The notes beneath the pieces were generated by a model. The model did no database searches and was not told the origin of the DNA. It saw nothing but the letters and a program-made list of their open reading frames with translations. Source: a virus. Taken from it: a stretch of DNA of 64,000 nucleotides. Made by a program: the position numbers and the translations under genes. Shown one piece after another: positions 21 to 24,932 of the stretch. The number at the start of each line of letters is the position of its first letter. Within the stretch, counting starts at the first letter, position 1. The stretch spans positions 41,679-105,678 of the IMG/VR virus record IMGVR_UViG_3300032093_000041; one strand, given 5' to 3'.

Positions 21-1379
21 ATGGTGCGTCGTGATGGATTTGTTCTTGAGCCAGTTGTTAGCAATGCTGTGCTACGAACGATTCCTGACAACAGAGACAT
101 GGAAGGTGCAACGTTCATACAGACAGCTCTTGAGCCGAAGACGATTGGACAAGACGAACTAGGTCTACTTTCCAACACAGGAATTCAGAAGCTTGTCTAT
201 GTCCTTAATGGTGGCTCAACCCTTAATATTGAAAAAGCCAGGCCCCTGACTGTTGGTGAAAGACGCAAACTCGGTAAAACCGTGAATGTCGCAATGAGGG
301 CCGACAACAGTTCCGACCCAGCAGCAAGATTGAGACTTGTAGCAGAAGAAATGGGCGACGCTGTTAGATATGAAGAGTCTTTCGAGCAAATATCAAACCC
401 CAACGAAATAGTTGTGGCAAAGATTCCTGGCTCGAACGTTAAAACACGTGTGAAAAGATGGGTTTATGAAGCGTTTTACGCCAAAAAACCAACTAAAAAA
501 ACGCCAGCAGAAGTAGATACAGAGGACGGCGACACGCTGTCCCCCGGCAAAAAAATTGACAATCTTTCTGGAGCCGTACGTCACTTAAACGCAGGCGGTT
601 CTTTAGAAAATATATCTAGCGCAATTCGCGTAGAGGCTCTAAGACGTAGTCGACTTTACAAGACTGGGAAACTCAAAGAAGGAGTAATTCTTCACGAGCG
701 TGCAGATGGACAAACTGTCTTTGAAATGAAACCGAAAAAAGACTTTGAGCATCTAGGTGCAGCATTTGCATCAGAAGTGCAAAGGTCTCTAGGTCTAATC
801 GCGCCAAAAGTGAGGGTTGCTGGAAGCGGAAATAGGCGTCCGTATCTTATTGGGGAAGCACAGGATGCTGCCACCAAGGGCTCGCAATCACGTTCAGACG
901 GTCTTAAAAACGTCGCTGCAGAGGATTTGGTTGGACTGGCTATTGCTGACTGGCTTACCGATACATACGGTAGGTCTCCGGCGAATATTGCTCCGGTGAA
1001 CATTAGCGGCTCAATGCGTGCTGTCTCATCAATAAATCCGATGGCTGGTTTGCCGACATCAAATGCTCGAAATGTAAGAGTCAGAATGGATTCTTCGATT
1101 GATGATTTTTTTGGCCAGCAGTTGCGCGAAATGTATCGCAAAAATTTCGAGCGCTTGCAGGCTGAGCAACGCAAAAAAGCTTTACAAATCATTGCTGCAT
1201 ATATAGAGCGTGCGCAAGATATAGACTTTGCGGACATGAGAAGGCGTCTAACTTTAGACGGTTCTTTATCTCAGGCAGAAAAACGACACCTTGGAATTAT
1301 CGAAAACCTTTTTAATAGGCGGCTTGAAACGCTTCGCACGTCGCGGGCAGCATTTATAAAAGTTCTCGGTCTAAAGTAA
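21..1379 (+). CDS. C-terminal part of a large protein (frame open to the window edge) ending in a degenerate HipA/PI3-4-kinase-like domain
   Basis: Frame open from position 3. EHLGAAFASEVQRSLGLIAPKV...LAIADWLTDTYGRSPANI resembles the E..a..la..lG..vP / D.l..N.DRH..N kinase pattern but lacks the catalytic Asp. Contains ISGSM (1002-1016). Confidence 0.6.
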   Translation: MVRRDGFVLEPVVSNAVLRTIPDNRDMEGATFIQTALEPKTIGQDELGLLSNTGIQKLVYVLNGGSTLNIEKARPLTVGERRKLGKTVNVAMRADNSSDPAARLRLVAEEMGDAVRYEESFEQISNPNEIVVAKIPGSNVKTRVKRWVYEAFYAKKPTKKTPAEVDTEDGDTLSPGKKIDNLSGAVRHLNAGGSLENISSAIRVEALRRSRLYKTGKLKEGVILHERADGQTVFEMKPKKDFEHLGAAFASEVQRSLGLIAPKVRVAGSGNRRPYLIGEAQDAATKGSQSRSDGLKNVAAEDLVGLAIADWLTDTYGRSPANIAPVNISGSMRAVSSINPMAGLPTSNARNVRVRMDSSIDDFFGQQLREMYRKNFERLQAEQRKKALQIIAAYIERAQDIDFADMRRRLTLDGSLSQAEKRHLGIIENLFNRRLETLRTSRAAFIKVLGLK

Positions 1380-1380
1380 A

Positions 1381-4300
1381 ATGAAACAAATTTCTCTTGT
1401 TAAAGACAAAATAGACGGGTCCCCTTTTGCTGTCCTCCTGATAGACAAAGGTTCTGTCACGGCATATGGCTCTCCTGGACAAGGAGAAGACTGGGCAGAA
1501 TGGGTCAATAGTCAAGAAACATCCGTAGAAGAAATACAAGATGTTCTAGATGTTCGCCTGGTTGCTGAACCATCAATTCCAGCAAAAAAATTTAACGAGA
1601 GCTCAATCAGTAGCTACTTAGGTCAAGAAGCAATGGACTTGCTAATGGCAGAGTTAAATAAAAAAGCTCTGCTAGAAATAGTTCAAGTTAAGTCAGAAAG
1701 TCAGCCGCAGGAGTATGACGAGGAAGACCTTCCGGACTACACGCCCATATCGGTGTGGCCGTTGTCTGAAATATCGCTGGCTTCCATAGATGTTGCATAC
1801 AAATCTCAGCTTGCTGATTACAAGGCTAAAGCTTTCAACGCCGACAGAAACAGGCGGGCGCTTGCTCTTGAGGTGAAGTGGGCTAGAGCTATTTGGGATA
1901 ACGACCGTCAAGGATGGCGTTGCCCACCAGAGACCACCAATGGCGGCCAGTTCACTAACAGAATGGGTCTTGGTTGCACCACTGGTCTTGTTCGACGTCT
2001 TGGTCAATCTCTGATGAGCATTGAAGACAGAAATAAACTTCAGATGCAGCTCCCAGGACTAGAAGACCCGAGAGGTTTCCTGTATCGCTCTGGTTCATTA
2101 ATTGACCAGCGAGCAGAAACTAGACAGCGTGAATTTGCTGACCGACAAGAACGTCGCGCAGCACGCCGCGTTCGCAGTCTTATCGAAAAAGAAGGAAAAA
2201 AAGAACAAGAGCGTTTAGCTAAAGAAAACAAACGCAAACATCGTTCTGGGGAATCTCTAAGAGATATTTATTCAAGTTTTACGCCAGACGCAAGCAGAGT
2301 GTCTCGCGCACGTGCTGCTGGAGCAGTAAAGCTTCGTCGGTTTGCATCCAACGTAGAGCAAGAATCACTCAGGAATATTGGGGCGAGTCAACAGCGCAGA
2401 GACCGCAGGGTTAGGGACGTATCAGAGGAAAAGCTAGACAGTAAGAAGATACGCAAGCTCCGCGATTTTGGTGGAAAAATACCTGGTTCAAAACTTGGAG
2501 GCTATGTCCAGTACGACAAGATGATGGCAGACGACAAAGGGCAGGCTGTCGACATCAATGGCGAACTCATGGTCCCTCGTGTTCTTGTGGACATGGATGA
2601 AATGCACTCTAATCCATACTACGGAAGAGAATTTTTAACAGATGATTCCGGTAATCAAGTAGAAAATTTCCATGCCAATCATAAGTGGGTCACCGTAGAA
2701 GAAGTACTCGCTATGGCGTCTATCAATCGCGCGACCAAACCAGCACATGACTGGATTGAAATGCGTAAGGGGCGAGGTTTCCCTGGTGATGAAACCATTG
2801 AGTTTGTTGAAGCAAAAGAACTTCGTAAAATTCAAAAAGACAATGGATTTATTGGAGTTCGGTCAAGCTTAAAAGACAAAGGCAAAGGCCGTTTTGACGG
2901 AGACACTCGCGGCAAAGGCAAGAAGAAGACAAAACCAGCGCAAGGCGGCTCCATCGGCGACATGGAATTTGAGCCAGATGAATTGCCGCCAACCGTCGCA
3001 AAAAGGTTTGGAGATGCATGGCGCGATAGCAGAAAACGTCTTGGTTCGTGGATTGCAAACCTTGACCCCTTGCTAGATGAAGACCAGAAAACACGTCGCG
3101 AAAAGCGTCGCCGCCAAAAAGCTTCAAAATCTAAAGACTCGAGCGCCATAAACGGTGCAAACATTCTTCAGTCTCTATTCTCTGATATTGATGACCCGAT
3201 AGAGGCAACCGTGCGATACGCACAACTGTCCAACTTTAAAGAACCAGAGTTCAGAGACTGGTACGACTACACCACAAACAACAAACCAGTACCTGAGCGT
3301 CGCGAAGATTGGAACTTTGGATTCAATAGTGTAATTGGCGAACCGACACCTCATTTTGCTCGGCTCAAAAACCTTATAGACGGAATAGTGTCAGAACACG
3401 CCGCTGGCGTACTGATTACAGCGGACGACTCAGAAGACCCCGATATAACCAAATTTATTTTTCAAGATTACGACTTCAGTACAAAGTTTAGGTCTGGTCA
3501 AATTGGGAATGTATACAACGTGCGTGTTGTAACAAGGACTGATGGCGTTGAAGAAGTACGACAAATAGCTGTAGATTCAATAAGTCTAAATCGCTGGACG
3601 GATAATCCATTAGACGAGAACAGACAACCAATTACGGCAACTGATGCAGGTCTATATATGCTGTGGTCAAACACAACGTTTTTAGATGTTCCGGAAGATG
3701 TCGTAGAGAGAGCAGCTAGTGGGCAAATGCCTACGTTTGAGCTCGTAGAGCTTGCTGCGAAACAATGGGTGGACCCAGGGTATCACGGTGCTCAGCCGCC
3801 TGCTTTCTATTATGACCAGGCCACTAAATGGCACGAACATTACAGGGTTATCGGCTTCAACCAAAAGGGTGCTCCGCTATATATCAAGGGTGCAGGCGGG
3901 AGGGGTCGGACCGGGTCAACGTCGGTACATATCCCTGGCACATCAAATTCTGTCGTAGACACGAGAACCGGTGGTCTTATTTCTGGCCGCATGAGCCAAG
4001 AAACAATAATCACCCCAGAAGGTCAGCGAGCCCTAGACGACCCTAATGTGAATATTTGGACTGGTGAACAAAACTTTCTGGTGCTTGACGGAGGCCCTGC
4101 ACCCGGGCGCGGACGCCGGCGTCGTCGCACATCTGGTCCTACGCCCCAGTCTCCTGGTGTTGTATCGCGCTTCCTTGATGGAGAAGGTCGCCAACTAAGT
4201 AGAGAACGCCGCAGCGCAAGAAGGATGCTAAAGGGGCGTACACCAAAAGACACACGCCCGATACGTCAACGCATAGAAGCTGCGCTGTATGAGAGGTCAC

Positions 4301-7300: not shown

Positions 7301-8733
7301 ATCTAAGCCAAGGAAGTCCAGCAGATGAATACGGATATACCGGCATGCCGGAAGCAAACACCGTATTTGGACACCTAGAGCTAGACAATTTACCTCCAGA
7401 GAACCTAACTGGCTGGCAACGCCAATCCCCAGGAGCCGCTGCAGTATGGTCTCTTATGGAGGCTTCTGGATTCAACGGAAACCCACTATTGCTTGATGTA
7501 GAAGAATTTAAAGAAATAGCTAAAATTGAAGATTCATCAGGAAAACGACAAACTCTAGTTGTAACCAGAGGTATCGATTCTCATGGAAGAAACTCAGGAA
7601 GTTTTCTCACCAACTTGCTCCTAAGAGCTAAACGCTCGCTTCTTGGTTCAGGCGGAGCACAGCATGGAACGGGAGAATATTGGAGCGCTCAGCCTTTTGA
7701 ATGGCGCTCAAACAGTGAGTCTTCGGCAATCGGAATGATTGTGCGCGGAAATCACAGGGTAGGTTCGCATGAATTGCTCGTAGGTACCGACAGCTCAGCA
7801 AGAACTAACGGCTCGAATGGTATCTTGTCGGATTTATTTTACGAAGCCACGTGGGCTGTTGCAAACGCACTTGGTGCAAGAGGTTTCGGCAGCGGTACAA
7901 ATCCTAGTCACGGACAAGAATACGCAGCAGATATCCCAGTTAATTCAGTGAAAATAGACCCTGTTACCGGACTGTATGACCAGGCCGACCTGGATAACCT
8001 ACAACTAAAAATCCTGGAACTGACCAGGGCGTTTGACCCATCACAAGGCCTCGGTAGCGCTGGCCTGATGACCCTTGAGAAGTGGGCGGACAGAAGAAAT
8101 TTTGTTACAGATTCCATAATCCCAGACCTTGCTGGTGGAGCTGCAGCTTCAAACTTCGACCGCAATGAGTCAGCAATCAGGGAAAGGCAATTTTTAAATG
8201 CCTGGCTTGGCCAACACTTGAGCTGGATGGTTCAACTGGCACAAATGCGACGAGATGAGTCTGACCGGGTCAACGGAAAGGAAAACGCTCAGTGGAATAG
8301 GCGTCTAGATGCTGCTCAGCACTCCATCGTGATGATGGACCCAAATGCCAGAGCAGCAATGATGGGGTATGACGTTCTGATTAGACATGACCAGAACAGT
8401 CATAACTGGAGCAGCAGGAGTCAATACGACACAGACGCCAGTTATAGGTTTGGCGATTATGATTTCTGGGAGCAAGACAGCAGCAGAATAACACTCCATA
8501 ATCCGAAAGTGTTGCTGATGTTAAACAGAACAGCCACTCCGATGCTGAGGCGTGTCCATTCTTCTCAGACATGGGCCGTTAGAAGCAACCGGAGCGGAGG
8601 GCATTTCCTTGATGGGTCAGGACTGACAATCGCAGACATATTGCAGGAGATACCAGCAAATCCAACAACACCTGAAGAACAATATATCGCCGATACTCTT
8701 ACTAGGTATATAGAATTATGGGGCGGACTATGA
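1381..8733 (+). CDS. Giant (2450 aa) head-module protein; probable C-terminal ADP-ribosyltransferase-like domain
   Basis: Uninterrupted ORF. N-terminal WRCPPETTNGGQFT motif; ISGRM at 3979-3993. C-terminal GFNGNP..EEF..VTRGI..GGAQHGTGEYW..AAMMGYDVLI..LMLNR resembles ART-like domains fused to phage minor head proteins. Confidence 0.7.
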   Translation: MKQISLVKDKIDGSPFAVLLIDKGSVTAYGSPGQGEDWAEWVNSQETSVEEIQDVLDVRLVAEPSIPAKKFNESSISSYLGQEAMDLLMAELNKKALLEIVQVKSESQPQEYDEEDLPDYTPISVWPLSEISLASIDVAYKSQLADYKAKAFNADRNRRALALEVKWARAIWDNDRQGWRCPPETTNGGQFTNRMGLGCTTGLVRRLGQSLMSIEDRNKLQMQLPGLEDPRGFLYRSGSLIDQRAETRQREFADRQERRAARRVRSLIEKEGKKEQERLAKENKRKHRSGESLRDIYSSFTPDASRVSRARAAGAVKLRRFASNVEQESLRNIGASQQRRDRRVRDVSEEKLDSKKIRKLRDFGGKIPGSKLGGYVQYDKMMADDKGQAVDINGELMVPRVLVDMDEMHSNPYYGREFLTDDSGNQVENFHANHKWVTVEEVLAMASINRATKPAHDWIEMRKGRGFPGDETIEFVEAKELRKIQKDNGFIGVRSSLKDKGKGRFDGDTRGKGKKKTKPAQGGSIGDMEFEPDELPPTVAKRFGDAWRDSRKRLGSWIANLDPLLDEDQKTRREKRRRQKASKSKDSSAINGANILQSLFSDIDDPIEATVRYAQLSNFKEPEFRDWYDYTTNNKPVPERREDWNFGFNSVIGEPTPHFARLKNLIDGIVSEHAAGVLITADDSEDPDITKFIFQDYDFSTKFRSGQIGNVYNVRVVTRTDGVEEVRQIAVDSISLNRWTDNPLDENRQPITATDAGLYMLWSNTTFLDVPEDVVERAASGQMPTFELVELAAKQWVDPGYHGAQPPAFYYDQATKWHEHYRVIGFNQKGAPLYIKGAGGRGRTGSTSVHIPGTSNSVVDTRTGGLISGRMSQETIITPEGQRALDDPNVNIWTGEQNFLVLDGGPAPGRGRRRRRTSGPTPQSPGVVSRFLDGEGRQLSRERRSARRMLKGRTPKDTRPIRQRIEAALYERSRRRSGEPRPISMQAPDIDINVYSDELRRMEESGESIEARNALPPIDGVYDWLLPDNFSAGNDWWGSGVNQQRIDTLNASLHELGGSFFPLVSQRDIDRLPQLAEEGRKWLEDINDPDKDSAPGEVSNWGFAEWKEYGGYTYVYDSRNETKPPIAIVNNESGTTHMIGKDGQHLMTLVTRVAPSGETVFLPVGSNSTHKRLDNITEQPGFLQTVLGKFRRRQQQDINPEQIIPGLRSRERAFTRGDNTIEDVRSQFENGTPSDTFPYSFATKQRTGALAPTSLTTLQEESLLEEADKLQVQIADDFRRQLGLNKKDQLTEEAIKDLIDDLQRRGKKREAGIATNNLHDLAVLDDMLQSRDVMHVNNLKPGRRHLLLGTSVNPVPDSEQKRRRAMTPDMIHVSSDSRAMDSRLSDRGDTDPATSKRTYPSGAINLYEPSEESFTPSSPRPQTGPALIPGEGDATGTIVYQNGMYFDTSTNRYVEDLSGLDFESADFVHVPVPLEESSTNGIDDLGGEFPKILLTSGPGAPSRQSAVIAPGVSSTNPEAALTSRPDAVNAVVAKPNSFTEAFYLVRNRWRQIAATKPADQTEPYRKLTDKIGADPAPTAFMLSSLLSPLLSKADGLESEEGVSLYSAPIHSPTLSGSDNAAGILRAIRNASRKSPTENGLFSDYLPGSSGDIVSYSGMAVGPHAPRGQTVLDAIGVFADLPFETVYIPSTQPIAPNVAQHNSLANANRTLLDTKIFRSLNAALQLDYASQKMRQLLDSGTPQEITGWNDTWGKRFGGRFDITQADIESVEQLRDAAWQRAAEDLSSVAKNAGDRRNDFLNQWRNRSQFRPENREIDAELSIATEYITNGVIAEQAEYLLTKHILTNPRIMQSLAQSELVSLESRSREANKRMERLEAIRSAQTALGRRSMPGYSPEDIDPIELLPVLDRHGDGVVTNASLRDPAEIVEILSDHKSLGFGAPLDIDPATGEYVPSILTDDQMEALALIDYSIRRNLSQGSPADEYGYTGMPEANTVFGHLELDNLPPENLTGWQRQSPGAAAVWSLMEASGFNGNPLLLDVEEFKEIAKIEDSSGKRQTLVVTRGIDSHGRNSGSFLTNLLLRAKRSLLGSGGAQHGTGEYWSAQPFEWRSNSESSAIGMIVRGNHRVGSHELLVGTDSSARTNGSNGILSDLFYEATWAVANALGARGFGSGTNPSHGQEYAADIPVNSVKIDPVTGLYDQADLDNLQLKILELTRAFDPSQGLGSAGLMTLEKWADRRNFVTDSIIPDLAGGAAASNFDRNESAIRERQFLNAWLGQHLSWMVQLAQMRRDESDRVNGKENAQWNRRLDAAQHSIVMMDPNARAAMMGYDVLIRHDQNSHNWSSRSQYDTDASYRFGDYDFWEQDSSRITLHNPKVLLMLNRTATPMLRRVHSSQTWAVRSNRSGGHFLDGSGLTIADILQEIPANPTTPEEQYIADTLTRYIELWGGL

Positions 8734-9119
8734 AATCTATAGATAAATCATCTTTAACGTCAGACGAATTTGCAATGTATTCACAGAGCAAGTTAAAACT
8801 AAAACGAGCCGTGGAGGACATGTATCAACTTGCTGAGTTGCCTCCATTTGCTTTTGACAAGACAGGAAAAACTCCAGAACTTGCTGGGGAATTCATACAA
8901 GACATAAATGAACACCTTCGAGACATTGATGAAGAAGATTTCATCACAGATAGATATAGGCCACTTGTAGACATAAAAACCAAATATGAAAACGAACTCA
9001 ATGAAGCTCGCAAAATACGCGACAGTGCGCCCAAGCTTGGCCTAGCGTTAAAAAAATGGTTTGAAGACAACAATCTACGAATGGACGAAGCGATAGCGTA
9101 TTTCTACGGCGTGGATTAA
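8730..9119 (+). CDS. Small protein coupled to the giant ORF (possible partner/immunity protein)
   Basis: ATG at 8730 overlaps the upstream stop (ATGA). Confidence 0.7.
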   Translation: MKSIDKSSLTSDEFAMYSQSKLKLKRAVEDMYQLAELPPFAFDKTGKTPELAGEFIQDINEHLRDIDEEDFITDRYRPLVDIKTKYENELNEARKIRDSAPKLGLALKKWFEDNNLRMDEAIAYFYGVD

Positions 9120-9121
9120 AT

Positions 9122-12100
9122 ATGCTTATTGAAAACGAAGACGAGAAGCCTAGGAACAGAAAGCTTCGACGCAACAAAAAAAACTGGGAAAAGCTTAGAG
9201 AAAAACCAATTGTCGCTATCGATACCCTGTCTGGTGGCGGTCTTGTTTCAGGTCAAATATCGGGCAAAGCTCTGGGAGGACGCATAGGTCGTCGTATTGG
9301 TGGAGCCTCTAAGCCAATGGATATGAATCCGACTACAGCAAGAGACGCCGACATGGACGGAATGGTCTTAGAGGGCATACCAACAATTCGCCAAGGAAGA
9401 GGAATGCCAGACCCCACACCGGGAGGCGAAGTCGCCGGCCGAATGGGCAGGGAGCAAAATAAAGAAGAGTTTGTAGGTGTAGACAAGCTTTTGCGCCAAC
9501 ATTTTTCACAGTTTGCAAAGTTTCAAGAATGGACGAAAAACAAAGATTGGAACGCATTCCATAGAAACCATTTTGACTGGTGGATGTTTCCAATCCCTCT
9601 CGGTTCTAATTCATATAGGGATGAGTACAACATTGCCGGGGAACCGCTAGAAGAACTACGGCAAAACAAACGCTACATGGCAACGCTGGCGAGCGCAATG
9701 AGGATGTACACACGTTCAATCGGCTGGGACATGGACAGTCAAGAGTGGATAAATAACGCCGAAATAGAACGTGGGCAAGAGCCAGTTAGAAGCCTTAATC
9801 GTGCTCGCTTACTCAAAATTGCCCAGTCAGCTGAAGCTCATGGTCTAGATAATGAACTTAGCTCGATGAGCCACATGGTCAACGACATGCGTTCGAACGG
9901 CATCCCAACCGGAAATGATGAATACTGGAATTCTATTTCTGGAAGGATGAGCAATCCTGATAGACCAAATTTTCCACTTAACCCAAAACAAGGCGACACT
10001 TTCTCTTCAGATGACCCAGAAGATACAAGAATATGGAAATTTGATGGAAAGTTATGGGTTAGGCAAGACGGAGGCGGAAGACGCTCCGCGACAGTTGGGT
10101 TCCGTAAAGCCGGTGGCAGCGGGGGTAAAAGTATATCTCCATCAGCTTCTTCTATTAGGGCTGGTTCAGAAAGAACTGTAAAATATGGTTCGCCAGCTTT
10201 CGATGAGCTGTGGGAACGCCGCGACAAAGAAAACGAACAGGCGGACGGCACCAACCTAACATTTGACTGGAAAAATGAAGAGTCAAGGCTTTACTACTTA
10301 TCAGTATTTGGCAAATTTCCCAATACTCATCCTAAAAATAGAAAAAAAGTGGGATGGGCAAAATTTGGTGGGGGTAACGAGCCTGGGAATTATTCTGGGG
10401 GAACTCACTCCTGGATTGCTGCAGTAAAGAATCAATTGCGTGAACTTGGAATTTCACTCGTCCCACAAGAACACCCTAAAATGGGGGACCAATATGGAAG
10501 CTGGATTTCTTTCTCCGGCAGCCCTGGTGCGTCTGCTGCAGAAGGAGCATCAGCAAAACAGCTGTTATCTCATCTTGCAGAAACAATTAGCCCTGATACA
10601 TTCTATGAACACTTTGAAGCTTGGATTAGAAATCCATTTGTAACAGCACAAAAAAACGGCAAAGACGTTGGCGTAAGACTTGCTTTCAACAATGATAAAG
10701 AAAAGCTTTTAAATGAATACCGGCGTAGAGTTATAGCGCTACGAGATGCATTGTACTCTCATTTTGGTAACGAGGTTGACGAAGTTGCCGAAACAATGGT
10801 TAAGCCCCTAACAGACTCATCAGGAAAATCCAGCACCAATACTGGGAACGATTGGGTAGACCTAACAGAAAATGCTAGATGGGCTTCCAACTTAATCAAA
10901 CAACAAGTATCAAATATTCTTGAACAAGAAAAACCTCGCAGCGAAGAACGCCTTGCATATCTTTTAGATTCGCGACTGCAATCAAAGCTACCTGATGAAA
11001 TAAGGCAACAAATACGAACATCTCCTAGTTTTATTAGAGGCTTGCTTCAAGAAGAATTCAAAAACAGGGACTGGGGGAGAGGAGATAATTTCTCCCAAAT
11101 AGATTTAATGCCCTCCGTTGATGACGAAACGGTGTCCCTGATTGAAGAATTAGCTGACGAATTTATAGAAAAACTAATAAGCGAAAATGCCGATGTGAGC
11201 GTAGTAAGTGACGCAGATTCTAAAAATTTCATTGATTCATTTGTTCAGGATTCCTCAATGCGGACATCCGCAGCAAAGCCGATGTTGCAGAGCAAACTCA
11301 GCAACAGAATAGCTAGAGGACAAATTTCTGGGAAAATGGGAAATACCCCAGAAAATGACATAGAAGCGAAAGACCTTGAATACGACCCCGACACGCCAGA
11401 GCATTTAGGGAACCATTTCACATCGAAACATGAAGGGTACGACGTTAGGCCTAACCCTGTAGACAACGTCTTGGATGCGCGCAATACCGGCGCACCACTG
11501 GAGTGGCTCGTACCAGGTTCGTATCACCCAGAAATAAAAGAATTAGTCAATGGGCTGACGGACAAGGTATTGGAGCTTGGGTTTGCTAGTTACCTACAAA
11601 CAAATCCAGACTTCTACATGGGCTCTAAAGATACCGCTGGTCGCGATGCAGCATCGGAATTCAGAGGTTGGCTCGGAGGATGGATTGGAGCAACTGTTTC
11701 CAAGATAATGGCCTTGGGTGATTTTGGTGAAGATTTTGAACTAGACGACGGTCATAGGGACTTCATAAGAAATTTCGTAGGAGACATGGCCGACACAATG
11801 ACCCGCTTCTCTGACATACCGCGTGAAGACCCTGACGGTCGTGGCGGCAACACAATGCAAGTGCTTCGTGGCCTTATTTCTCGTGTTCCTGGATTTGGTT
11901 CAGGGGGAAGTATGACAAGCGACCTAAGTCAAGAAGTAAATGACATAGCCAGCGGACTAGCAATGCGGGCCATACACGCAGGGTTAAAAATCAACAACAT
12001 GCAACGTATGGGTATTAGCGATAGACGTAGGGCGAACCAAGACACACTTGACTGGTGGAACTCTGCCATAGGCGCTGGCCTGCTTTCTACATCTCCTAGC

Positions 12101-12925
12101 GATTATGAGTCGATAGACGATATTGGATACGAAAACCTAATGAAAGAGTCGCAAGTATCTGTGGCCATGCCTATTAATGCTGTTTTAAATATGTTTGCTG
12201 ATAACGAGTTTAAAACGCTATTTGAAACAAACACCAGCCAAGGCAATGTCAACACTTCAGCTCGGGCCGCAGCAGAATTTGCGATGTTCGGAATCCTCCC
12301 CTCATATAAGGGGAAGAGGCCTGCTTACGGAATTTTGCACGTCGGCGGAATGACAGAAGATGCAATAAAAAACACGAACCAGTACGGACCCATAAGAATT
12401 GTCCTAAACCCCGACATGAATGAAAAGGTTACTTGGACAGAAATTGACTCACTGTCCTTGATGTCAACAGCTTCAACGTTAAAGAACCCGTCACAGCATG
12501 GGCTTTTTGGACAAAGGCTTACTTCTGACACCCCCTTTACAAGGGTTTCGGCAGCCGACATTATCTCTCTTATCGAGCGTGGCCGAGATGTATCAAATAG
12601 CGCAGACGACAAGAGTGCCATAGGTAGGTCCAAATATGCAGAAGCTCAAATTCATTCAAAGATAACTCTGGAAGACATTCAATACATTGTCGTTGACGAC
12701 ACCGACTTTAGATGGGGGGATATTGATTTTCCTCCATTTGGTCCTGATGGGATGATTCTGATGCAGGACGACGATGGTTATGAGGAAGCAGCAGATGAAT
12801 TTCCCGATGACATTATGGATTATGAAGGATTTATTCAGATATCCAAAATTGCAGAATCTCTTAACATTCCCGTTGTTCTGCTCAGTGATATAACAAATGC
12901 TGGCGAAGAGGTGGTGAGGCCGTGA
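9122..12925 (+). CDS. Large (1267 aa) multidomain protein: N-terminal DxDxDG tag, OGFr/DUF1810-like domain, C-terminal DUF3626-like ART-fold domain
   Basis: HFDWWMFPIP motif; FKTLFETNTSQG..RPAYG..QYG..IVL..TWT..DS..YAEAQIH..ITLEDI pattern. Separators VAGRM 9431, ISGRM 9935, ISGKM 11324. Confidence 0.7.
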   Translation: MLIENEDEKPRNRKLRRNKKNWEKLREKPIVAIDTLSGGGLVSGQISGKALGGRIGRRIGGASKPMDMNPTTARDADMDGMVLEGIPTIRQGRGMPDPTPGGEVAGRMGREQNKEEFVGVDKLLRQHFSQFAKFQEWTKNKDWNAFHRNHFDWWMFPIPLGSNSYRDEYNIAGEPLEELRQNKRYMATLASAMRMYTRSIGWDMDSQEWINNAEIERGQEPVRSLNRARLLKIAQSAEAHGLDNELSSMSHMVNDMRSNGIPTGNDEYWNSISGRMSNPDRPNFPLNPKQGDTFSSDDPEDTRIWKFDGKLWVRQDGGGRRSATVGFRKAGGSGGKSISPSASSIRAGSERTVKYGSPAFDELWERRDKENEQADGTNLTFDWKNEESRLYYLSVFGKFPNTHPKNRKKVGWAKFGGGNEPGNYSGGTHSWIAAVKNQLRELGISLVPQEHPKMGDQYGSWISFSGSPGASAAEGASAKQLLSHLAETISPDTFYEHFEAWIRNPFVTAQKNGKDVGVRLAFNNDKEKLLNEYRRRVIALRDALYSHFGNEVDEVAETMVKPLTDSSGKSSTNTGNDWVDLTENARWASNLIKQQVSNILEQEKPRSEERLAYLLDSRLQSKLPDEIRQQIRTSPSFIRGLLQEEFKNRDWGRGDNFSQIDLMPSVDDETVSLIEELADEFIEKLISENADVSVVSDADSKNFIDSFVQDSSMRTSAAKPMLQSKLSNRIARGQISGKMGNTPENDIEAKDLEYDPDTPEHLGNHFTSKHEGYDVRPNPVDNVLDARNTGAPLEWLVPGSYHPEIKELVNGLTDKVLELGFASYLQTNPDFYMGSKDTAGRDAASEFRGWLGGWIGATVSKIMALGDFGEDFELDDGHRDFIRNFVGDMADTMTRFSDIPREDPDGRGGNTMQVLRGLISRVPGFGSGGSMTSDLSQEVNDIASGLAMRAIHAGLKINNMQRMGISDRRRANQDTLDWWNSAIGAGLLSTSPSDYESIDDIGYENLMKESQVSVAMPINAVLNMFADNEFKTLFETNTSQGNVNTSARAAAEFAMFGILPSYKGKRPAYGILHVGGMTEDAIKNTNQYGPIRIVLNPDMNEKVTWTEIDSLSLMSTASTLKNPSQHGLFGQRLTSDTPFTRVSAADIISLIERGRDVSNSADDKSAIGRSKYAEAQIHSKITLEDIQYIVVDDTDFRWGDIDFPPFGPDGMILMQDDDGYEEAADEFPDDIMDYEGFIQISKIAESLNIPVVLLSDITNAGEEVVRP

Positions 12926-13128
12926 TTGAGCTATTTGCCACCGGGCCAGGTGGGAGACAAAAAATGTTTAAAACCCATTCCGTCATGGTTGGAAATTCTC
13001 CTGTCTACTTTGGATACATACTCAGGAACGGCGAAAAAGGTGGAATAATTAACTTATCGTCCGTTGTTGCCTCTAATCCAGTTTGGACAGTCGTTGACGA
13101 ATTTATCGCAGATACTAAACCAGAGTAG
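12922..13128 (+). CDS. Small coupled protein (68 aa), possible partner of the DUF3626-like domain
   Basis: GTG start overlaps the upstream TGA (GTGA). Confidence 0.65.
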   Translation: MIELFATGPGGRQKMFKTHSVMVGNSPVYFGYILRNGEKGGIINLSSVVASNPVWTVVDEFIADTKPE

Positions 13129-13148
13129 AAGAAATCTTTACAAAACAC

Positions 13149-16100
13149 ATGACTGATACGCAGAACATAGACATTGAGCAAAAAGACGTTCTTGGGGCTC
13201 CGCGCAGAGTGCGCACTACCGACCCGGACGTTTTCTCTGACCCAGAATCGGCCAGAGTTGCTGCGCGACGTCTTGGATGTATTGGGATTAGAAGATATCT
13301 AAACCGCTCAGGCGGAGAGTCATGGATGCCATGCACCAATGAGTCCGACTACAGAAAATATAGCGGGATAGGTGTTTCTGGTCGTAGGTTCCGACGCCAG
13401 CAGCTGGAAAGAGATATCAGGCAAATCACCGGCCGAGGCAAGCTTGCAAAGAAGACTTTAGAAGAAGCTGTCGAAACGAAAGCAAGCAAAAAAAATAACT
13501 ACACAAAGCCGGAATTGCGCGAGAGAATCAAGCAGCGAATTATGGCTGGCTCTGAGGGTGGAGCCCCCGGACAGTGGTCTGCAAGAAAAGCGCAAATGCT
13601 CGCTCAGGCGTATAAAAAAGCAGGTGGCGGATACAAGACTGGCGGAAAAAGCAAAACGCAACGTTCGCTTTCTTCGTGGACTAAAGAAAAATGGACCACG
13701 AGCGACGGTAAAAAAGCTCGCAGAGGTAGCTACACCAGAAGATACTTGCCAGCTAAAGCGTGGTCAAAGCTGACACCGGCGCAAAGAGCGGCTACCAACA
13801 GGAAGAAAATACAGGGTTCTCGCAGCGGAGAACAGTTTGTCCCTAATACGGATGCGGCAAGAACGGCACGCAAACGTTCAGTTAGGGGCGTAAAACACGT
13901 TGAGTTTTATGACGGCATCGAAACAAAATCAATCGATGGTCTGATAGAGGAAAAGGCATTATCTCGTCGTTCTTCCAGAAGAACTCTTAGAACTCCTGGT
14001 GCGTTGCGTCCTAGATTGGGAGCAACCGGACAGGATATGAATCCCGCAACAGCGAGAGACGAAGACCTAGACGGCTTAGTTCTTGAAGGAATTCCCACAA
14101 TTAACCGTGGTCGCGGTGTAATTGACCCAACCCCGGGCGGAAGACCGAGTCGGTGGGTGCCAAGAATGCGGCCTCAAAGGACGCAAGCGCCAACACCGGA
14201 AGAAAAACCTCAGCCTCGTAGGCAGTTGCTCCAGCGACCAGAAAGATTGCCAAAACCAAAGGCTGAAAAAGTACGCGAATCTAAACTTAATTGGCTCCCA
14301 GAAGATGCTGATAAATGGACAGAAGACGATGCCCAGAGGTTGCTCGATACGCAAAAAGCTTCCGGTCTTTCTTACGGTGAATTTGCAAAACAGAACGGAC
14401 TTTTTGCTAACGACGTTCGTGAATCAGTAGAAAGACAAAAGTCTCGACGCAAAAAGCGCATCAGTGCTTTTCGCAAAAATAACCCCAAACTTTTTGCTGC
14501 TGTTAACAGTTTTGGAGCTGTTAAAGACGAGGCAATGGAAGCGGTTTCTAGAGGAAAAGTTAACAACTGGGGCTCACTTGTTTCATGGGCGTTTAAAGAC
14601 AATGACTTAAAGCGCCAAAGACTAAACGACAGGGCGGTAAACGACCTATTTAACAATGTGTCAAATGGTCTTGACCCAGACGGAAAGTCAGATGTAGTTC
14701 TTGGTTTTGTGCCGTCGCGCACGAAACAAGGAGAAATGACTAAGACTTTTGCCCGAGCAAACAATCTTCCCGATGGTTTCGTTAGTAGATACAAGACTCC
14801 GAGAACAGCCATACAGCCAGCTAGAAGAATTACTTCCACGGCCGAACGAGCAGAACGTCGTGGAGAGCGACGCGTTGGAAGAATAAGCAGAGACATAGAG
14901 GCAACAGCTAGGGCGTTTGAAAGGTTTGACGCTATTTCCGGCCGCATGGGTGGGATATCAGGACGCATGGCAACACCGTCTGGCCCAGACTCACAGTGGA
15001 CAAACCAAGAAAAAGCACAGTGGAAAGCCGGTCAGTGGCGTAAGAGGTTCCTCTTCGATGAAGCCCTAAGTACTGCAAGGGTTAATTTATCACCTGAAAT
15101 GCAGGCACATATTGCCAAGTATCCTGATGCCGCAACTGCAGCAAGAGCAATCCTTGACCTATCTGACCAAGATTTAGACAAGCTGTTCAAGGGTCATAAT
15201 GACGCGCTCAAAGCAGCGAACGTAGCCATTAAACCTCCAAGAAAAGATGAACTTCCGCTTCTTCCGTCTGAAGTTGCTGCAGCAGCACAAATCAAACGTC
15301 CTCTCGTTAGAAGCTTCCTTGATGAGTACAAAAAAATGGCACCGAATGGGACTTTGTCGCGTCTTGATGTTGACGTACTCTCTAATGAAGACATTGAAGA
15401 ACTGTTTAATCGCTACATACTGCCAGAGATGGTCGACCCAACAAAGCTCGATGCTGCTGGTGTAATTGATGTTGCCCAGAGAATTTCTCAACCGGGCCAA
15501 GAAAATTCACCGCTGCGCCTGCTGGACAATCTTGCATATATGGCCGGCGACGATGCGATGAGCCTGGAAGCAAGAAGAAGAGTTCTTCAAGAAAAACTTG
15601 CCGCTGGTGTTGCTCAGGGAACCATGACCCCGGCTCAACAGCAGGCAACACAAAATGCGCTTGATGCCCTAGATGAAGAACTAGCAAAACTAATAGCTGA
15701 CTACGAAGCTGGAAAGCCTTTAGATTCGTCTATACCGTTGCAGCCTTTAGACGACCCGAGGCAAATGCCAAGATGGGCTGGCGGACGTAGGGCGCTTAGT
15801 TTTGAAGACCCAGTAACAGCAGATGATTACATCATGTTTTTGTTGGAAAACAATGACATTGGCTTCCACCCAGAATGGGGTCCAATCACCAAGCCTGAAT
15901 GGGAGAACTGGTCAGAAGACATACAGGAGAGGGCCGCAGAAGCAGAACGCGTCTATAGAGAAGGCGGAGAACTAGAAGCTAAAGACGCCATAGACGCTTT
16001 GAATGCAGAGTATCAGCAATGGACACAGGTTGGTCTTGAGGCAGGATGGATTCAAGAGCCAGAAGAAGACGAAGAGTTTGAAGAACCGCAGCCTGAGCGC

Positions 16101-19100
16101 CCAATACGTGATGAGTTTGGTGTTCTCGATGAAGATTGGGTATGGAACACAGAACACGGTTCCCCCGAAGAGCTTGGCGTAACCGACGACCCAGCAACGT
16201 GGGCTCAACACCCGGACAACGTCGAAGACGACGGCGTAACCCTAATCCCACTTGACGAACTAGAAGAATTGATTCTCAAGTATGCGCCGAAACAGTTTCA
16301 AGCTGACCTTCTCGAAATACTAAAGCCAAGTGAGTGGACAGACCCACACAACGGTCATATCGACCAAAGATACATTGACCTCCCGCCCGAATTAATTGAT
16401 TATTTTGTCGGACAAGCAATGGGAACAATGCCGCCGACCCCATCAAGCTCAGGACAGATGCCAACACCAAACCTTGGTGGAATACAAGGTGATGGAGTTG
16501 GACTTTCCGACCCGGGCGGACCAAGACTTCGCAAGGGCATACCTTTTATACCAAGGAACATCAACTGGGACTCTGCATTGCGCATGTTCCAGCGAATTCT
16601 AAATAAACAAGGAAAACAAGCATCGTCAAAAGGCTCTTATGCAACTGCAAGTCGCCAGTATGACCCAGCACTTGGTGTTTATGACGACTGGGGTGCACTA
16701 CAGCTACAGAACCAGTTTGTAGAGGCTGCAAAGGAAGCCCGCGAGCTTTACGTTACGGGAACTGGACAAGATTCTCGCAAAGCTCGAGAGCAGGTTTGGA
16801 ACCTTCTTCAATCAGGAAGAACTCCGCAAGAAATAAGCCATGAACTGATTATTTTTGGTGCAGACCAGCCGGACACAAATAGGCCTCCTCAGCCAATTGA
16901 TTTGCGTGACTTGGTTAAAGCTGCAGCAACACAGTACGCAATAGATAACAACATCAAAACTTCAGATGTAACAAAACTTCTCAATGCAGCAGACCAGGCT
17001 TTCAATTCTGATACAGCGCGTCAAGAGGCGTTTAGGAGAAGCCAGCTTGAGCGCTTGCGTGACGACCTAACCCGTCTATTTAGCGGCCAAAGCCCACAAC
17101 AAATCATTAGCTCTATTGATGGTCTGATTGAAGAAACAGAAAGAAAGAAATGGTTTGCTGACCAGGCATACAGAATTGAACGCGGACATGATGCTCGGTT
17201 AAGAAAAGCCGCTCTTGACCTTGCTGAGTCATATCCTGTTCCAACCGCTCGTCGCGCAATATTTATGGAACCAGATGGGACCATAACTGACAGCCCAAGC
17301 CGTAGAGCAAAAGCCCTCTATCAGGAGCCATACACTGGCGAAGTAACTGACGACGACACGAGGGGATGGCCTCAGGCGTTTGATGAAGGTTATGACCCAA
17401 CACAAATAAGTCGGGCACGCCATGCTAACCGCATATATCGCTGGTGGAGACAAAACTGGGGTTACATCGAGCGAAACGAAAATGGTGAAATTACTCGCGA
17501 ATATGTAGGTCCGCTGCAGGGAACACTAAAGGCTCATCAGCTTCACGCACGTAAATACGGAAACGAAGGTCTTGCTGGAACAACTGCGTATGCAACAAGA
17601 ACAGCAGATTCTCGAGTCCAGCAGCTTCGTGAAGTAAAAAGAACCATAGAGGGGGCGCGGCAAGAGGGTCGAGGCATGGGAATATCTGGCTTCATGCGAA
17701 GCGGTGGGCCGAACCTTTACGATGAATATTCACGGAAAGCAGCTCGCGTACTTGTTTCGGGACGCCGCAAAAACAAACCTTCATCAATGCTGCTTGGCTA
17801 CGATTCTGACGAAATGCCAATTACAAGAGCAATGAGGACGGCATTTTCTGGAGGAAGTGGGAAGTTCCTTGGAGCATCTAATGAGCATTCATTTGCTGCA
17901 TTAATGAACCCCGAGAACGTTGACTACTTTAAACATCTATCACCGGTGGAGAAAGACTACTTTAGAGCCCTCTACTCAAATCCAGACTTTGTCGTTGCCG
18001 TATCAAAAGATGTGACTGCACCGCTGCCGAACAGAACACGCGGTGCTTCCACCGTCTCCCCAGACGAAGCAATAATAAATGCATTCCGTTCGTCTATGGA
18101 TGCAACGCGACCAACGATTTCTGGTCAGATGGGATTGAGGAGAACGCTAAGCAACGCTAGCAGAGTTGCAAGATACAACCCTGAGAGATGGCAGCGAGAA
18201 TATTTAACAGCTAGAAATAGTTTCCGGATGACCTCGCCTTTCAGGGGCAAGAAAAAGCAGAACTACAAGCTTGAACAAATAACTCTGAAAGACAGCGTTT
18301 TTAAGCCAGTAGAAGGTCTTTATCTTGTAGATGCAGATACAAAAAATGTTATCGACGGACCTTTCAAATCAGATGAATTAGGTTTATTGGCCAGTGAAAA
18401 AGCCAAGGGCGCAGAAACAAGCGTTATATCTAAAAATTATCCTCGTCCATGGGAGCAAATGCCTGAGATTCAGGAGCTAATTGCTAACGGCGTGAGTAAT
18501 GAATTGCGTGATTTTATGACGCTGGACTCACACAAGATAAGCGACATACGCAGCACTGTTTACGACACTATTGAAGGCAAAATTAACCAATATGCACTAG
18601 ACCTTGATAAGGGCGTCCCACAGAAAGCGTCAGATACGGCAATATTTAGTCGCGACCCTGATACGGGGGCGCTAATGGTTCTTCTTATACAAAGAGCGTT
18701 CGGTCCACACAAAGACGATACCGGTGCATGGGTTCTCCCTGGAGGGTTTGCTGACCCTGGCGAAACCGCACTAGAGACAGCATTGCGTGAACTAGAAGAG
18801 GAAGTAGGACTAAAAGTAAGTCCGACAGATGCGCGCGTTAAGCAGATAGGAACAATAACAGCACCAGACTGGGATGTGCGCTTTACAAAAGGCGTAGAGG
18901 TCAGTGGTACTGCGTTGTTTGTATCTCCAGACGCTGCCTTTAAGGCTGGAGATGACGCGCTGAGAGCGCAATGGTTCCCTGTTCAGGATATAGCGGACGG
19001 AAAACTTCCAATCGGGTTCGGACATGTCGCGTGGATTAAGAACGCTATGGCTCTGGAAGTTGATGACCCGGCAAACTATGGTCCTGACTACGAAAGTTTA

Positions 19101-22100
19101 AGAACAGGTTTAGACCGTGTTGAAAGAGCAACGCGTGCTAGGAATAAAGAACTAATTGAAATTTCAAACAGCTGGCGCAAAGAACTGAATAAAGGCAGAG
19201 CAAAAGCCGACAAGATAAAACTTTTTGACGAAAAAAACCTTGGTTCATATTCCGCTTGGGAACTAGCTCCATCAGACGACATGATGAGGCTCGGCTCAAT
19301 ATCCCGCATGAGGCTAATGGGCAGAGAGGTAACTCCAGAATCTATTGCCGCGGACGTAGAAAGAACCCGTGAAAACCGTCTATCCAGAGTTGGTTCAAAT
19401 TTTGGTCCGTCAATATCTGGACGCATGGGTGAAGGGTTTGAAAACAACATGAACGACATGCACTTAAGAGGCATGTCGTCTGACGAAATAAAAAATAAGC
19501 TGCGCCAAGAAAATGGCGTCAGTGAAGAGGATATAAATCGTTACGTTCTCTATAGCGGAATACAGTTGTCTAAAACTTCAGACAATGTTTCAGCTTCAGA
19601 GCGAAAAATGTTTGACGAGATGATATCCAGCGGAGGCTCAATTAGAGACTTGGCAAAAAAGAACAAAATATCTTTTACGGAAGCAATGGATGTTGTTGTA
19701 AAAGTAGAGTCTTCAATCGGCAATAGAGAGCCGGCCATAAATGCAGCATTGCGCAAAGCAATTATGAATGATTCTTTTATTTCTGGAGCAGAAAAAGCGG
19801 CGATGGTGCAGCGACTACATGGAGCATCGCGTGCCTCTGTAGCAAAATTTATGGGTATGTCGGTGGAGCGATACGGGGAAGTAGAAGCATCGATAATAGA
19901 CAACCTAAAAGCTCGCAACCCGAAAATGTTTAAGTCTGCCGGTGCATGGTCTTCAAATCCAGAATCCTTATTTGCAGAACAAGATATTTTTATGCGTTAT
20001 GTTCATGGCAAGCAGCCACTAAACCGCATAGCAGAAGACCTTGGCATGACCGAAAAAATGGTCGATGGCATAGTAAAGCGATACGCCAGATGGAAAAATT
20101 CAAATGCTCCTCTAGAGAGAGCAGCAATCAAACAATCAATTTCGCAGTTTGGTTCAGCATTGAACGCTGGTGAAATTCAAATGATGCGTCGCTTGTCGGA
20201 CGGAGAAAATATATTCCAATTCTCCGAAAGAACAAACATGCCGAAGAAAGCTGCAATACGCATGTATAACTCGGCAATGCGTAAAATGCATATGGAATCC
20301 GGAGTTTCTCCTCTTTCAAGAAACTTTGACGCCAACATATATAAGGCGATACCTAAAGAGTGGATTTCTCCGTCATTCTTGTTCGAAAAAAATCCACCGA
20401 AGGCAACTAGGGCAATATCTGGCAAAATGTCAGACGTAGCAAAGAGCGCTAACAAATTTAACGCAGAAAAACGTTCTTACATGACATCCCCTATGTCTGC
20501 TTTGCGCGAAAAAGTAAAAGATATTCGCCAGGAAATGAGAGACCAAATACAGAATCTTTCATCTACGTCGGCTTATATGCATCCAGTATTTGGAGGGCAA
20601 GAAGGCATAGACAAAATGGCGGCGCTCGGTGCTTACATAAAAAGGACAATAGATGAATCTGTCCTAGAGGCTGTCGTGGATGCCGCACGAAAGTCAGGCT
20701 CACGGTTTTCAGGAGATAGAGAAGAAATTGCTAAGCGAGCAATGAATAAAGCTCGCAAATCTTTGATGGAAGATTTGTGGATGAAGAGAGAAATGATTGA
20801 TTTTTCTCTCGACATGCATGAAATGATTGAATCCGCATCTTGGCCATGGAGAATGTGGCAGCCAGACAGTCCTGAATGGCAGCGCCATAGGAACATCCCA
20901 GAGCTGATGGAAACATACAAAACGAACACGCCAAAGGGTCGCCAGGCATATATAAATGCCGGCTTCTACATGCCGCTTGGCGATAATGAGATGTTTGAAT
21001 TCCTAAATGCTGTCGAGGAAAACAATTCCATTAGCGGGAGAATGTCAAACCCGAGACAGTGGGCTCAATCTAGAGACCTATACGACATAATTGGAGTTTC
21101 GGAAACAGCAACAGACGAAGAGCTAAAAAAAGCCTTTAGAGCTAAATCTCGCGTGCTTCACCCAGACGTTAACAATTCTCCAGATGCTACTGAGCAATTC
21201 AAAGAACTTGGATTCGCATGGGAAACACTAAGCAATAGCAGGTTAAGAAACCAATACGATTCATGGCGAGCAGGACGAACTTCACGCCAATCTTCTTCGG
21301 CGAGACCAAATAACACAGACATTGCTGACGATGACATTGACGTAAGTCAATACACAGACCAAGACCTATATTTATATGACGATAAGGGTCGCCTATGGCC
21401 GCGGCATAACGCAAATAGAGACGACTGGCCTACCGCTCCGTTTACTCAGTCAACCGTGTTCCCGCAACGCCAATGGGTCGAAAAAGAATTTGACGAATGG
21501 TCAGACTGGACTCGCCACGGCATACAGCCATCACGCCCAGCAGGAAGTGCTCTATGGGGTGAGGGTAGAGGTACGCGAGACCTTGGTGGTGACGGTGAGA
21601 TTGATGACGATGGACAAGGAGGACCTGGCCCATCTTCTGGACCTCGTGGGCCATTTAATCCAACTTCAGGTAGCCCTGCTAATGCCTACTTCGTAGAACA
21701 ACAAGTTAGGCGTGACCTTGGTCCGGATGCAACTGACGAAGAAGTGCTAGCTGAGCTAATCAGGAGAATGACCGGTGGTGGGCGTGGCCCATCAATGAGC
21801 TCTTCTCCTGGTTCAATATCGGGTCGCATGTCATCGTCGTTCCCTCCTCTTGATGACAGCGTTCAAAAACGTCTTGGATTGCAAAATCTTCCTAGTTCAT
21901 ATGACCAATCTGAACTTACGAAACAGCATCCAAAACTTACGTTTGATGTTTACAAAGCCAACATTGGCGAACCATCTGTTGAAGTAACCACAACATTTGG
22001 CGGAAAGTCAAATGTCAGCAAGTATCGCTACGACAACGTTTATCGCCCCATTATTGATGCATTGGTAGCAGGAGTACAACGCCCTACTGGAGGAAAGCGT

Positions 22101-24932: not shown

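Follow-up and report, generated by a model that had tools for sequence, protein, structure and literature searches.

Four giant proteins encoded in the head module of an uncultured phage are punctuated by a recurrent short junction peptide, and we propose, at a probability of roughly 0.7, that they are virion cargo polyproteins with a lineage-specific cleavage code. The DNA analysed here (the window) comprises 64,000 nucleotides, bases 41679-105678 of the single 105,678-bp virus record IMGVR_UViG_3300032093_000041, and positions are given either in the window or in the whole record (genome). The phage is a contractile-tailed myovirus of ~106 kb (105.7 kb), and the window covers most of its head module, in which portal and protease genes on the plus strand are followed by giants 1 to 4 and then by the gene of an HK97-type capsid protein (Table 1). 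Each giant opens with a conserved leader segment at its N-terminus, after which come unrelated cassettes the size of proteins, and the four together string about thirty unrelated modules. The motif is real and highly non-random, it lies at module borders, the cassettes turn over among related phages, and the peptide itself is replaced by lineage. A cleavage signal would be the most economical reading of the junction peptide, and we propose the following hypothetical scenario, in which (i) the leaders would load the chains into the virion; (ii) the junction peptide would serve as a cleavage signal read by a co-evolving phage-encoded protease; and (iii) a single gene would give rise to many distinct proteins that reach the next host together with the DNA.

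The junction peptide has the consensus [IV]-[SA]-G-x-M, mostly ISGRM followed by Gly or Ser, and extends to [G/S/P]-[G/N]-[S/G/Q]-I-S-G-R-M-[G/S]-[N]-[P]. Within the 9,367 amino acids (aa) of the four giants, [IV][SA]GxM occurs 19 times against 0.32 expected from composition (Poisson P 2e-27), and shuffles of the giants (n=2,000) contained at most 3 matches. A six-frame scan of the 105,678-bp genome returned 23 matches to [IV]SGxM, 19 of them in frame in head-module open reading frames (ORFs) and the other four in frames that run opposite to the chosen ORFs or lie outside them; the remaining ~20,900 aa of the proteome hold zero strict and three relaxed matches. The enrichment in head-module genes that an earlier inspection of the window (the sequence-only reading) had expected from a whole-genome scan was thus found, and all motif positions that it had listed were confirmed (Table 1), as were its variants at 9257, 23178 and 24009. 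Giant 1, which lies outside the window, adds four ISGRM, and the head-protease protein carries PSSGRM-GG, with SSGRM at aa 322. The third codon positions of the motif hold only 0.06-0.5 bits, its Ser being coded by both TCN and AGY and its Arg by both CGN and AGR. Because these silent positions vary, selection acts on the peptide, as had been supposed from codon differences between copies, and a DNA repeat or recombination signal is ruled out. Nucleotide conservation 5' of the motif was absent (≤~0.45 bits at any upstream position), which rules out a ribosome-binding site at the motif. Degenerate junction-like peptides were also seen within long cassettes, namely SSGQM in giant 4 (aa 1100, window 16446-16460) and SAGLM in giant 2 (aa 2226, window 8056-8070).

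The motifs fall, as had been proposed, at cassette borders, and they lie in flexible linkers; three lines of evidence agree on this. In two AlphaFold2 (AF2) models, eight of the eight motifs tested fall in low-confidence segments (predicted local distance difference test, pLDDT, <50). The model of giant 4 aa 2410-3340 (mean pLDDT 64) places four motifs in such segments, which make up 28% of the chain, and the folded blocks between motifs are a helical domain, the J domain, the zeta kinase and another helical domain; the model of giant 1 aa 700-1260 (mean pLDDT 57) likewise has four motifs in low-confidence segments, and those at model residues 89 and 373 flank a folded exonuclease block (100-371). 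All Pfam domains lie within inter-motif segments, and none extends across a motif. Each inter-motif segment was compared by BLAST against related contigs, and the resulting blocks start at segment residue 1 and at a motif of the relative, beginning and ending at the relatives' own motifs; giant 4 aa 603-1511, for example, matches L007 154-970 and L021 527-1308, both flanked by those phages' motifs.

The cassettes comprise exonuclease, OGFr_N-like, DUF3626, Nudix, HTH, J-domain, zeta kinase and GNAT-like types, plus many of unknown family. The domain calls of the sequence-only reading fared unevenly: DUF3626, Nudix, DnaJ, Zeta toxin and HTH_28 are supported by Pfam, the last 'HTH' cassette is not, the GNAT matches are present but below Pfam cutoffs, and the OGFr_N-like call is supported by ESM Atlas features only (score 0.94); the OGFr_N-like cassette, at 168 aa, matches free-standing family members (155-183 aa) in size. 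For the last 1584 aa of giant 2, and likewise for giant 4's first cassette (909 aa), Pfam, PHROG and PDB-sequence searches returned no match. Giant 2 consists of a leader segment (aa 1-866) of the type LEVK...RCP...FT...C, a module common to giant 1, a conserved 686-aa protein and giant 2, followed by a 1584-aa motif-free segment. Giant 3 begins with a leader (aa 1-103) containing a DxDxDG module, which giant 4 shares at 62% identity and of which the protease protein has an echo, and continues with OGFr_N-like, 463-aa and DUF3626 cassettes. Giant 4 has a 595-aa leader segment conserved family-wide, then eleven cassettes, the first of them preceded by a tandem double junction, ISGRMGGISGRM (window 14934-14969), with sites 7 aa apart. 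A 46-aa stretch between two junctions of giant 1 (aa 742-787) would be a small spacer peptide if both were cut.

The capsid protein led to 317 related viral contigs at 72-91% identity (G and L numbers label individual relatives), and long homologues of the protease numbered 929 at E ≤ 1e-10. The nearest complete relative, G001 (137.8 kb, with terminal repeats), is collinear, minus two cassettes removed exactly at joints: its giant 2 homologue is collinear with the border at the motif, and the cassette that here follows the ISGSM junction at 24501 directly follows the zeta cassette in G001. In G002, a GNAT-like cassette, here that of the VSGRM junction at 23985, is placed before the zeta cassette rather than after it. 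Variable order of cargo at the motifs, which the sequence-only reading had predicted for related phages, is therefore seen, and cargo content varies there as well. Cassettes are 46-87% identical to those of G001 and the capsid protein 91%, which shows the cargo evolving more rapidly than the shell. Conservation is concentrated in the N-terminal segments, and for the first 595 aa of giant 4 there are relatives in 68 of the loci. In the cultured relatives, Gordonia phage Gray and the Bendigovirus group (capsid 48% identical), comparable genes are separate ORFs, and no recurrent linker was found in these Gordonia Bendigovirus phages, Gray included. One protease homologue, P0052, lies on a 135-kb contig that NCBI records in an Ilumatobacteraceae metagenome-assembled genome (MAG), which may point to an Acidimicrobiia (Actinobacteriota) host or to a phage that was binned wrongly; the hosts of the family are probably Actinobacteriota.

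The relatives carry other peptides at the same joints, and at least six such sharply defined dialects occur inside the capsid family of 72-91% identity. G004 uses (R)[LFM]SSG[RKGA], in about 20 copies in a 4740-aa ORF, G005 uses GLAS[TS] (nine copies in a 2105-aa ORF), L051 STRS (nine copies), L034 G-P-[VI]-G-[SK]-M, and L025 and L083 GMAS or GM[RA]SR. Orthologous cassettes show the exchange directly: the exonuclease cassette, 59% identical in L063, L066 and L068, is preceded there by TRTR-LSSG and here by YG-ISGRM, and the zeta cassette of L034 has DG-PVGKM directly before it. Since other peptides stand at the same joints in related phages, the junction peptide most likely signals cutting by a protease. 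A recognition site and its reader would be expected to be replaced in just this coordinated way at orthologous joints, and we take this as the strongest argument for a processing signal. Aligning the dialects in one register (Φ-small-small; basic P1) gave no consistent answer as to the scissile bond (before Ile, after Arg or after Met).

The dialects extend to the tape measures. Those of the relatives carry their own genome's dialect and no other, with 3 tags in G001 (p 0.007), 3 in G002 (0.01), 2 in G004 (0.015) and 5 in G005 (<0.0005). The tape-measure candidate of this phage has one LAGAM-GN at aa 554, in a Gly/Ala/Ser-rich stretch and orthologous in position to IAGAM-GN of G001, which alone is not significant (p 0.37). 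Degenerate forms also occur in it, MTGTM at aa 59 and ASGKVMG near aa 830, roughly where G001 and G002 have full tags. The replacement of the junction peptide genome-wide between related phages is, as far as could be found, a feature not previously described: the searched literature held no description of the motif or its dialects, and 'ISGRM' gave no biological match.

Several points weigh against reading the giants as cleaved virion cargo. Packaging in the capsid is inferred only from gene position, from portal/protease to capsid, and from the leaders, and linkers might in principle be conserved for some reason unrelated to cleavage. Both AF2 models are modest (mean pLDDT 64 and 57), and that of giant 1 discriminates weakly because 48% of its residues are below pLDDT 50. 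As only one LAGAM is present in this phage (p 0.37), the tape-measure argument rests on the relatives. Finally, the zincin assignment discussed below consists of HExxH, a downstream conserved Glu and language-model features, with no Pfam match.

Two phage-encoded enzymes come into question as the reader. If the peptide is cut, we would tentatively name giant 1's zincin-like module, at work in the capsid or following ejection, at somewhat short of an even chance; the S78 prohead protease would be a possible but less probable reader, and the remaining odds fall to both enzymes together or to another enzyme. A search among the larger right-arm ORFs found no further protease. The zincin-like module lies in the leader segment of giant 1. 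We put forward with reserve that it may be packaged together with the cargo and cleave the junctions either inside the capsid or once ejected into the next host, where the tape measure would also be present. Its HETGH at aa 473 is the sole HExxH in the head module, and its top ESM Atlas language-model neighbours are all metallopeptidase families (score ~0.91; a lead only). The layout of RCP leader, ~320-385 aa, HExxH and downstream E-x-x-A-E recurs in 6/6 genomes examined. Similarity of the module tracks the dialect, with 72% identity between this phage and G001, 39% (E 4e-63) between this phage and G002 and 37% (E 2e-17) between G003 and G004; across dialects there is no significant similarity of the module, while the capsid, the S78 domain and the same protein's leader (46-47% identity) remain recognisable. 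Such a reader would account for the tape-measure tags, all tagged proteins being candidate ejected proteins, and processing by embedded metallopeptidases was predicted by Iyer et al. (PMC5512222). However, no Pfam or PDB-sequence support for a peptidase fold was obtained, and the MPTase-PolyVal domains of G003 and G004 are absent here, so that no single recognised peptidase family runs across the group. Moreover, the head module of Gordonia phage Gray encodes an HExxH protein although linkers are lacking there. The pattern of similarity fits a zincin reader, but fast drift of cargo-like sequence would produce it as well. A further possibility, which we consider worth stating rather than probable, is that the junction code marks every ejected protein, cargo and tape measure alike, and that the co-ejected, fast-evolving zincin reads it only after delivery; inert chains would then be unpacked in the next host, and code and reader would switch as a unit.

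We regard it as slightly less probable still that the S78 prohead protease is the sole reader of the junction peptide and processes the cargo within the prohead, in the way that T4 gp21 acts on internal proteins. The prohead protease gene that the sequence-only reading had called for was found upstream of the window, in the same module. Its S78 domain is well above threshold (PF04586, 43.9 bits against a cutoff of 21, 3.5e-11; phrog_80 3.7e-28), and with an HK97-fold capsid protein that has a ~103-aa N-terminal delta region, both parts of an HK97-type (MEROPS S78) prohead protease system are present. In G003 (2984 aa), G004 (4740 aa) and G005 (2105 aa), S78 is the N-terminal module of a motif-punctuated polyprotein, and the S78-headed polyproteins of G004 (L095:3147-17366) and G003 (L096:3606-12557) also hold ArdC-N and MPTase-PolyVal (E 7.5e-46 and 5.9e-41). 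The protease proteins of the clade themselves keep the motif at two places, NP-[ISV][ST]G[RK]M-G.LAR near aa 306-349 and a second near aa 600-690. In the capsid protein, K-S-I-G-Q-M-F (aa 103-109), at which family-wide capsid conservation begins, is likely the region of the maturation site, presumably comparable to the HK97 K103/S104 cut, and its S-I-G-Q-M resembles I-S-G-R-M. In T4 and SPN3US, prohead proteases process ejected head proteins (PMC7411985), which offers a precedent.

The distribution of the dialects does not follow this enzyme. Over 160 aa, the S78 core is 71-82% identical across dialects, and that of G004 (LSSG) and G005 (GLAS) agrees at 81%, above the 78% for two ISGxM-type phages. 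The capsid peptide shares G-x-M with the cargo motif, yet it is constant where the cargo uses LSSG, GLAS or STRS: K-S-[IL]-G-x-[ML]-F is identical in all dialects, L034 (PVGKM dialect) even lacking the Met, and among 81 capsid proteins no co-variation of dialect and maturation site was found. Nor is co-variation seen with the protease-protein site after DUF6321, which has no counterpart in the LSSG and GLAS lineages, these having neither a tag there nor DUF6321. Tape measures are not known to be inside the prohead, and the significant dialect tags in those of G001, G002, G004 and G005 show that tags are not confined to its interior. Of the proposal that the prohead protease cuts the cargo, the presence of the gene and its fusion to polyproteins in sister lineages thus stand, whereas the S78 core and the capsid site, both untied to dialect, and the tape-measure tags speak against it. 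Within the protease protein, aa 327-785, after S78/DUF6321, contain a Cys-rich CGCGGSCGG...CQCGGSCGGSC stretch and a DGDGDG module, and a ~60-aa Pro-rich unit is duplicated in tandem (MPRTDEPIEIPEEIPVPEPTRIPKPNPDRTPSRP...).

It is unlikely that the peptide stays uncut, as a hinge, a docking or threading signal for proteins travelling through the tail, or a scar of cassette joining. The tags do mark proteins that plausibly pass the tail tube, cargo and tape measure; a recombination scar, however, should be conserved as DNA, yet the silent positions vary, the tandem sites 7 aa apart and the 46-aa inter-motif spacer fit cleavage better than docking, and the fusion to a protease also favours cleavage. 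Reading by a host protease, with dialects reflecting different hosts, appears more improbable still. The dialects differ among lineages that possibly infect different Actinobacteriota, and one relative's protease is recorded in the Ilumatobacteraceae MAG, but at least six dialects occur within a capsid family 72-91% identical, and two phage-encoded proteases (or candidates) lie in the module. The motif's ATG as an internal translation start, with modules made separately, or as the remnant of such a start, genes having once been captured start-codon-first according to the sequence-only reading, would suit a Met that never varies in this dialect and frequently precedes Gly, Ser or Ala, but this can practically be set aside, since I, S and G before the Met are as conserved as the Met itself, other dialects lack Met at the same joints, the consensus runs on past it ([GS]-N-P), and neither conserved nucleotides nor an initiation signal precede the ATG.

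Table 1. Features of the head module and its surroundings; positions are those of the window unless marked genome.
Feature	Position	Strand	Support or remark
Tape-measure candidate, 1715 aa	genome 11663-16810	-	one LAGAM-GN at aa 554
Portal fused to MuF domain	genome 28189-30477	+	Phage_portal 1.9e-50
785-aa protein, S78 prohead protease at start, DUF6321	genome 30568-32925	+	Pfam, PHROG
Acidic Met-rich 496-aa protein with PepSY domain, directly 3' of head protease gene	genome 33092-34582	+	PF03413, 3.6e-6
Giant 1, 1723 aa, RNase_T exonuclease cassette	genome 34857-40028, upstream of window	+	Pfam
Two small ORFs between giant 1 and 686-aa protein		+	
Conserved 686-aa protein, C-terminal two thirds in window	21-1379; start genome 40997	+	homologues in 50 related loci
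ISGSM in 686-aa protein	1002-1016	+	doubtful as junction tag
Giant 2, 2450 aa	1381-8733	+	
Junction ISGRM, giant 2 aa 867	3979-3993	+	G001 homology block starts exactly at G001's motif
133-aa ORF overlapping stop of giant 2	8718-9119	+	weak phrog_6939 match
Giant 3, 1267 aa	9122-12925	+	
Junction VAGRM, giant 3 aa 104	9431-9445	+	
Junction ISGRM, giant 3 aa 272	9935-9949	+	
Junction ISGKM, giant 3 aa 735	11324-11338	+	
DUF3626 domain in last cassette, giant 3 aa 1023-1202	12188-12727	+	PF12294, E 1.2e-9
Giant 4, 3927 aa	13149-24932	+	
Junction ISGRM, giant 4 aa 596, tandem pair member 1	14934-14948	+	
Junction ISGRM, giant 4 aa 603, tandem pair member 2	14955-14969	+	L007, L021, L009 blocks start at own motifs
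Junction ISGFM, giant 4 aa 1512	17682-17696	+	
Junction ISGQM, giant 4 aa 1657	18117-18131	+	
Nudix domain, giant 4 aa 1831-1950	18639-18998	+	PF00293, E 7.3e-16
Junction ISGRM, giant 4 aa 2089	19413-19427	+	
Junction ISGKM, giant 4 aa 2423	20415-20429	+	AF2 pLDDT<50 segment 1-19
Junction ISGRM, giant 4 aa 2628	21030-21044	+	AF2 pLDDT<50 segment 219-230
J domain (DnaJ), giant 4 aa 2643-2704	21075-21260	+	PF00226, E 1.5e-18
Junction ISGRM, giant 4 aa 2890	21816-21830	+	AF2 pLDDT<50 segment 466-487
Zeta-toxin-type kinase domain, giant 4 aa 2979-3134	22083-22550	+	PF06414, E 1.1e-17
Junction ISGRM, giant 4 aa 3326	23124-23138	+	edge of AF2 pLDDT<50 segment 919-931
Junction VSGRM, giant 4 aa 3613	23985-23999	+	
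Junction ISGSM, giant 4 aa 3785	24501-24515	+	
HK97-fold major capsid protein, 447 aa	25258-26601	+	PF05065 Phage_capsid 2.1e-41 over aa 162-441; phrog_10 4e-58
K-S-I-G-Q-M-F in capsid protein, aa 103-109	25564-25584	+	alignment of 81 capsid proteins
Staphylococcal-nuclease homologue directly after capsid gene	26650-27072		PF00565 3.8e-14; phrog_452 3.4e-41

The rest of the record frames this module (Table 1). Its minus strand encodes the large terminase, tail sheath, baseplate wedge, tail fibre and the tape-measure candidate, and its right part holds replication and nucleotide-metabolism genes. The three giant ORFs described for the window all exist at their given lengths, and their description as head-module polyproteins is upheld. 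The first ORF of the window, by contrast, had been called portal-like; as the true portal, fused to MuF, lies further upstream, this ORF is not the portal. It belongs to the conserved 686-aa protein, which carries the LEVK...RCP leader and gave no Pfam or PHROG match. The ISGSM of this protein is present in G001, the pattern was not found in the G002 homologue, and N-F-T-S-G occupies a similar place (aa 558-572) in the LSSG- and GLAS-type relatives, which suggests that it is probably a conserved structural element, not a tag. The PepSY domain of the 496-aa protein is, going by its Pfam name, of the peptidase-propeptide type, and the protein could be a scaffold or a protease regulator. A 107-aa ORF (genome 40025-40348) overlaps the stop codon of giant 1, as the 133-aa ORF does that of giant 2. 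Elsewhere in the window, GACGGTGGYGGRAGA occurs in ten exact copies, all on the plus strand between 55575 and 63555 and ~680-1500 bp apart among small genes (chance expectation zero); it may be a regulatory or promoter-associated element of the early region.

Prohead cleavage in T4 takes place at a motif that ends in Glu, and across the phiKZ/SPN3US group the processing motif is not known to vary. The T4 proteins IPI-III and Alt resemble the cargo described here in being head-packaged and ejected and in having a short protease motif and, at the N-terminus, a short targeting part (PMC7411985). They are, however, single small proteins, each cut once by the T4-type protease gp21, whereas here multi-cassette chains accompany an HK97-type protease and a motif without Glu. 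In phiKZ and SPN3US, many head proteins share one short motif (AxE in SPN3US), the proteases are gp175 and gp245, and the protease cuts itself (PMC7411985); there, the substrates that lose propeptides are separate gene products rather than strings of swappable modules. The tape-measure tags also set the giants apart from the ejection proteins of T4 and SPN3US. In phage P1, the head takes up the large anti-restriction Dar proteins (DarB, DdrB and others), of which DdrB undergoes proteolytic processing, but they are products of separate genes with no repeated junction peptide.

The closest likeness in composition is to the polyvalent proteins known from phages and from conjugative elements, huge phage proteins of many unrelated conflict-type domains (ART-like, GNAT, kinases, nucleases, HTH) that are predicted to be delivered with the DNA, and for which release by embedded peptidases has been predicted (Iyer, Burroughs, Anand, de Souza, Aravind 2017; PMC5512222). 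The giants have the domain content of such proteins, with Nudix, DnaJ, Zeta toxin, HTH_28 and DUF3626 in the window and RNase_T in giant 1. None of the giants of this phage matched the polyvalent hub domains PF18818 (MPTase-PolyVal) or PF08401 (ArdC-N), which are present in G003 and G004, and MuF, which in polyvalent proteins is a hub in the same protein, is here on the portal and not on the cargo. Polyvalent proteins are described with 2-15 domains, with no recurrent junction peptide in the text searched and the word 'linker' absent from it, and the assemblin-like peptidase is reported at C-termini (PMC5512222); here, in contrast, one peptide recurs at as many as about 20 joints of a protein and changes by lineage, and S78 is at the N-terminus. 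An analogy to the polyproteins that RNA viruses of eukaryotes encode, in which an embedded protease divides one ORF at repeated short sites into many functional proteins, was drawn by Iyer et al. (PMC5512222). The enzymes and domains are unrelated, and the products there are replication proteins, whereas in this tailed dsDNA phage the products would be virion cargo and cleavage is predicted.

If the giants are indeed processed virion cargo, tailed phages would pack dozens of host-takeover or anti-defence enzymes behind few loading signals and swap them as cassettes. Giant 'hypothetical' phage ORFs would then have to be re-annotated, with each inter-motif piece as a separate protein, and the junction peptide would provide a simple rule for spotting virion cargo in metagenomes. 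The dialects, at least six in one capsid family, would constitute a natural set of orthogonal protease/site pairs. Should the code be read by a co-ejected zincin, the system would be a functional equivalent of RNA-virus polyprotein processing.

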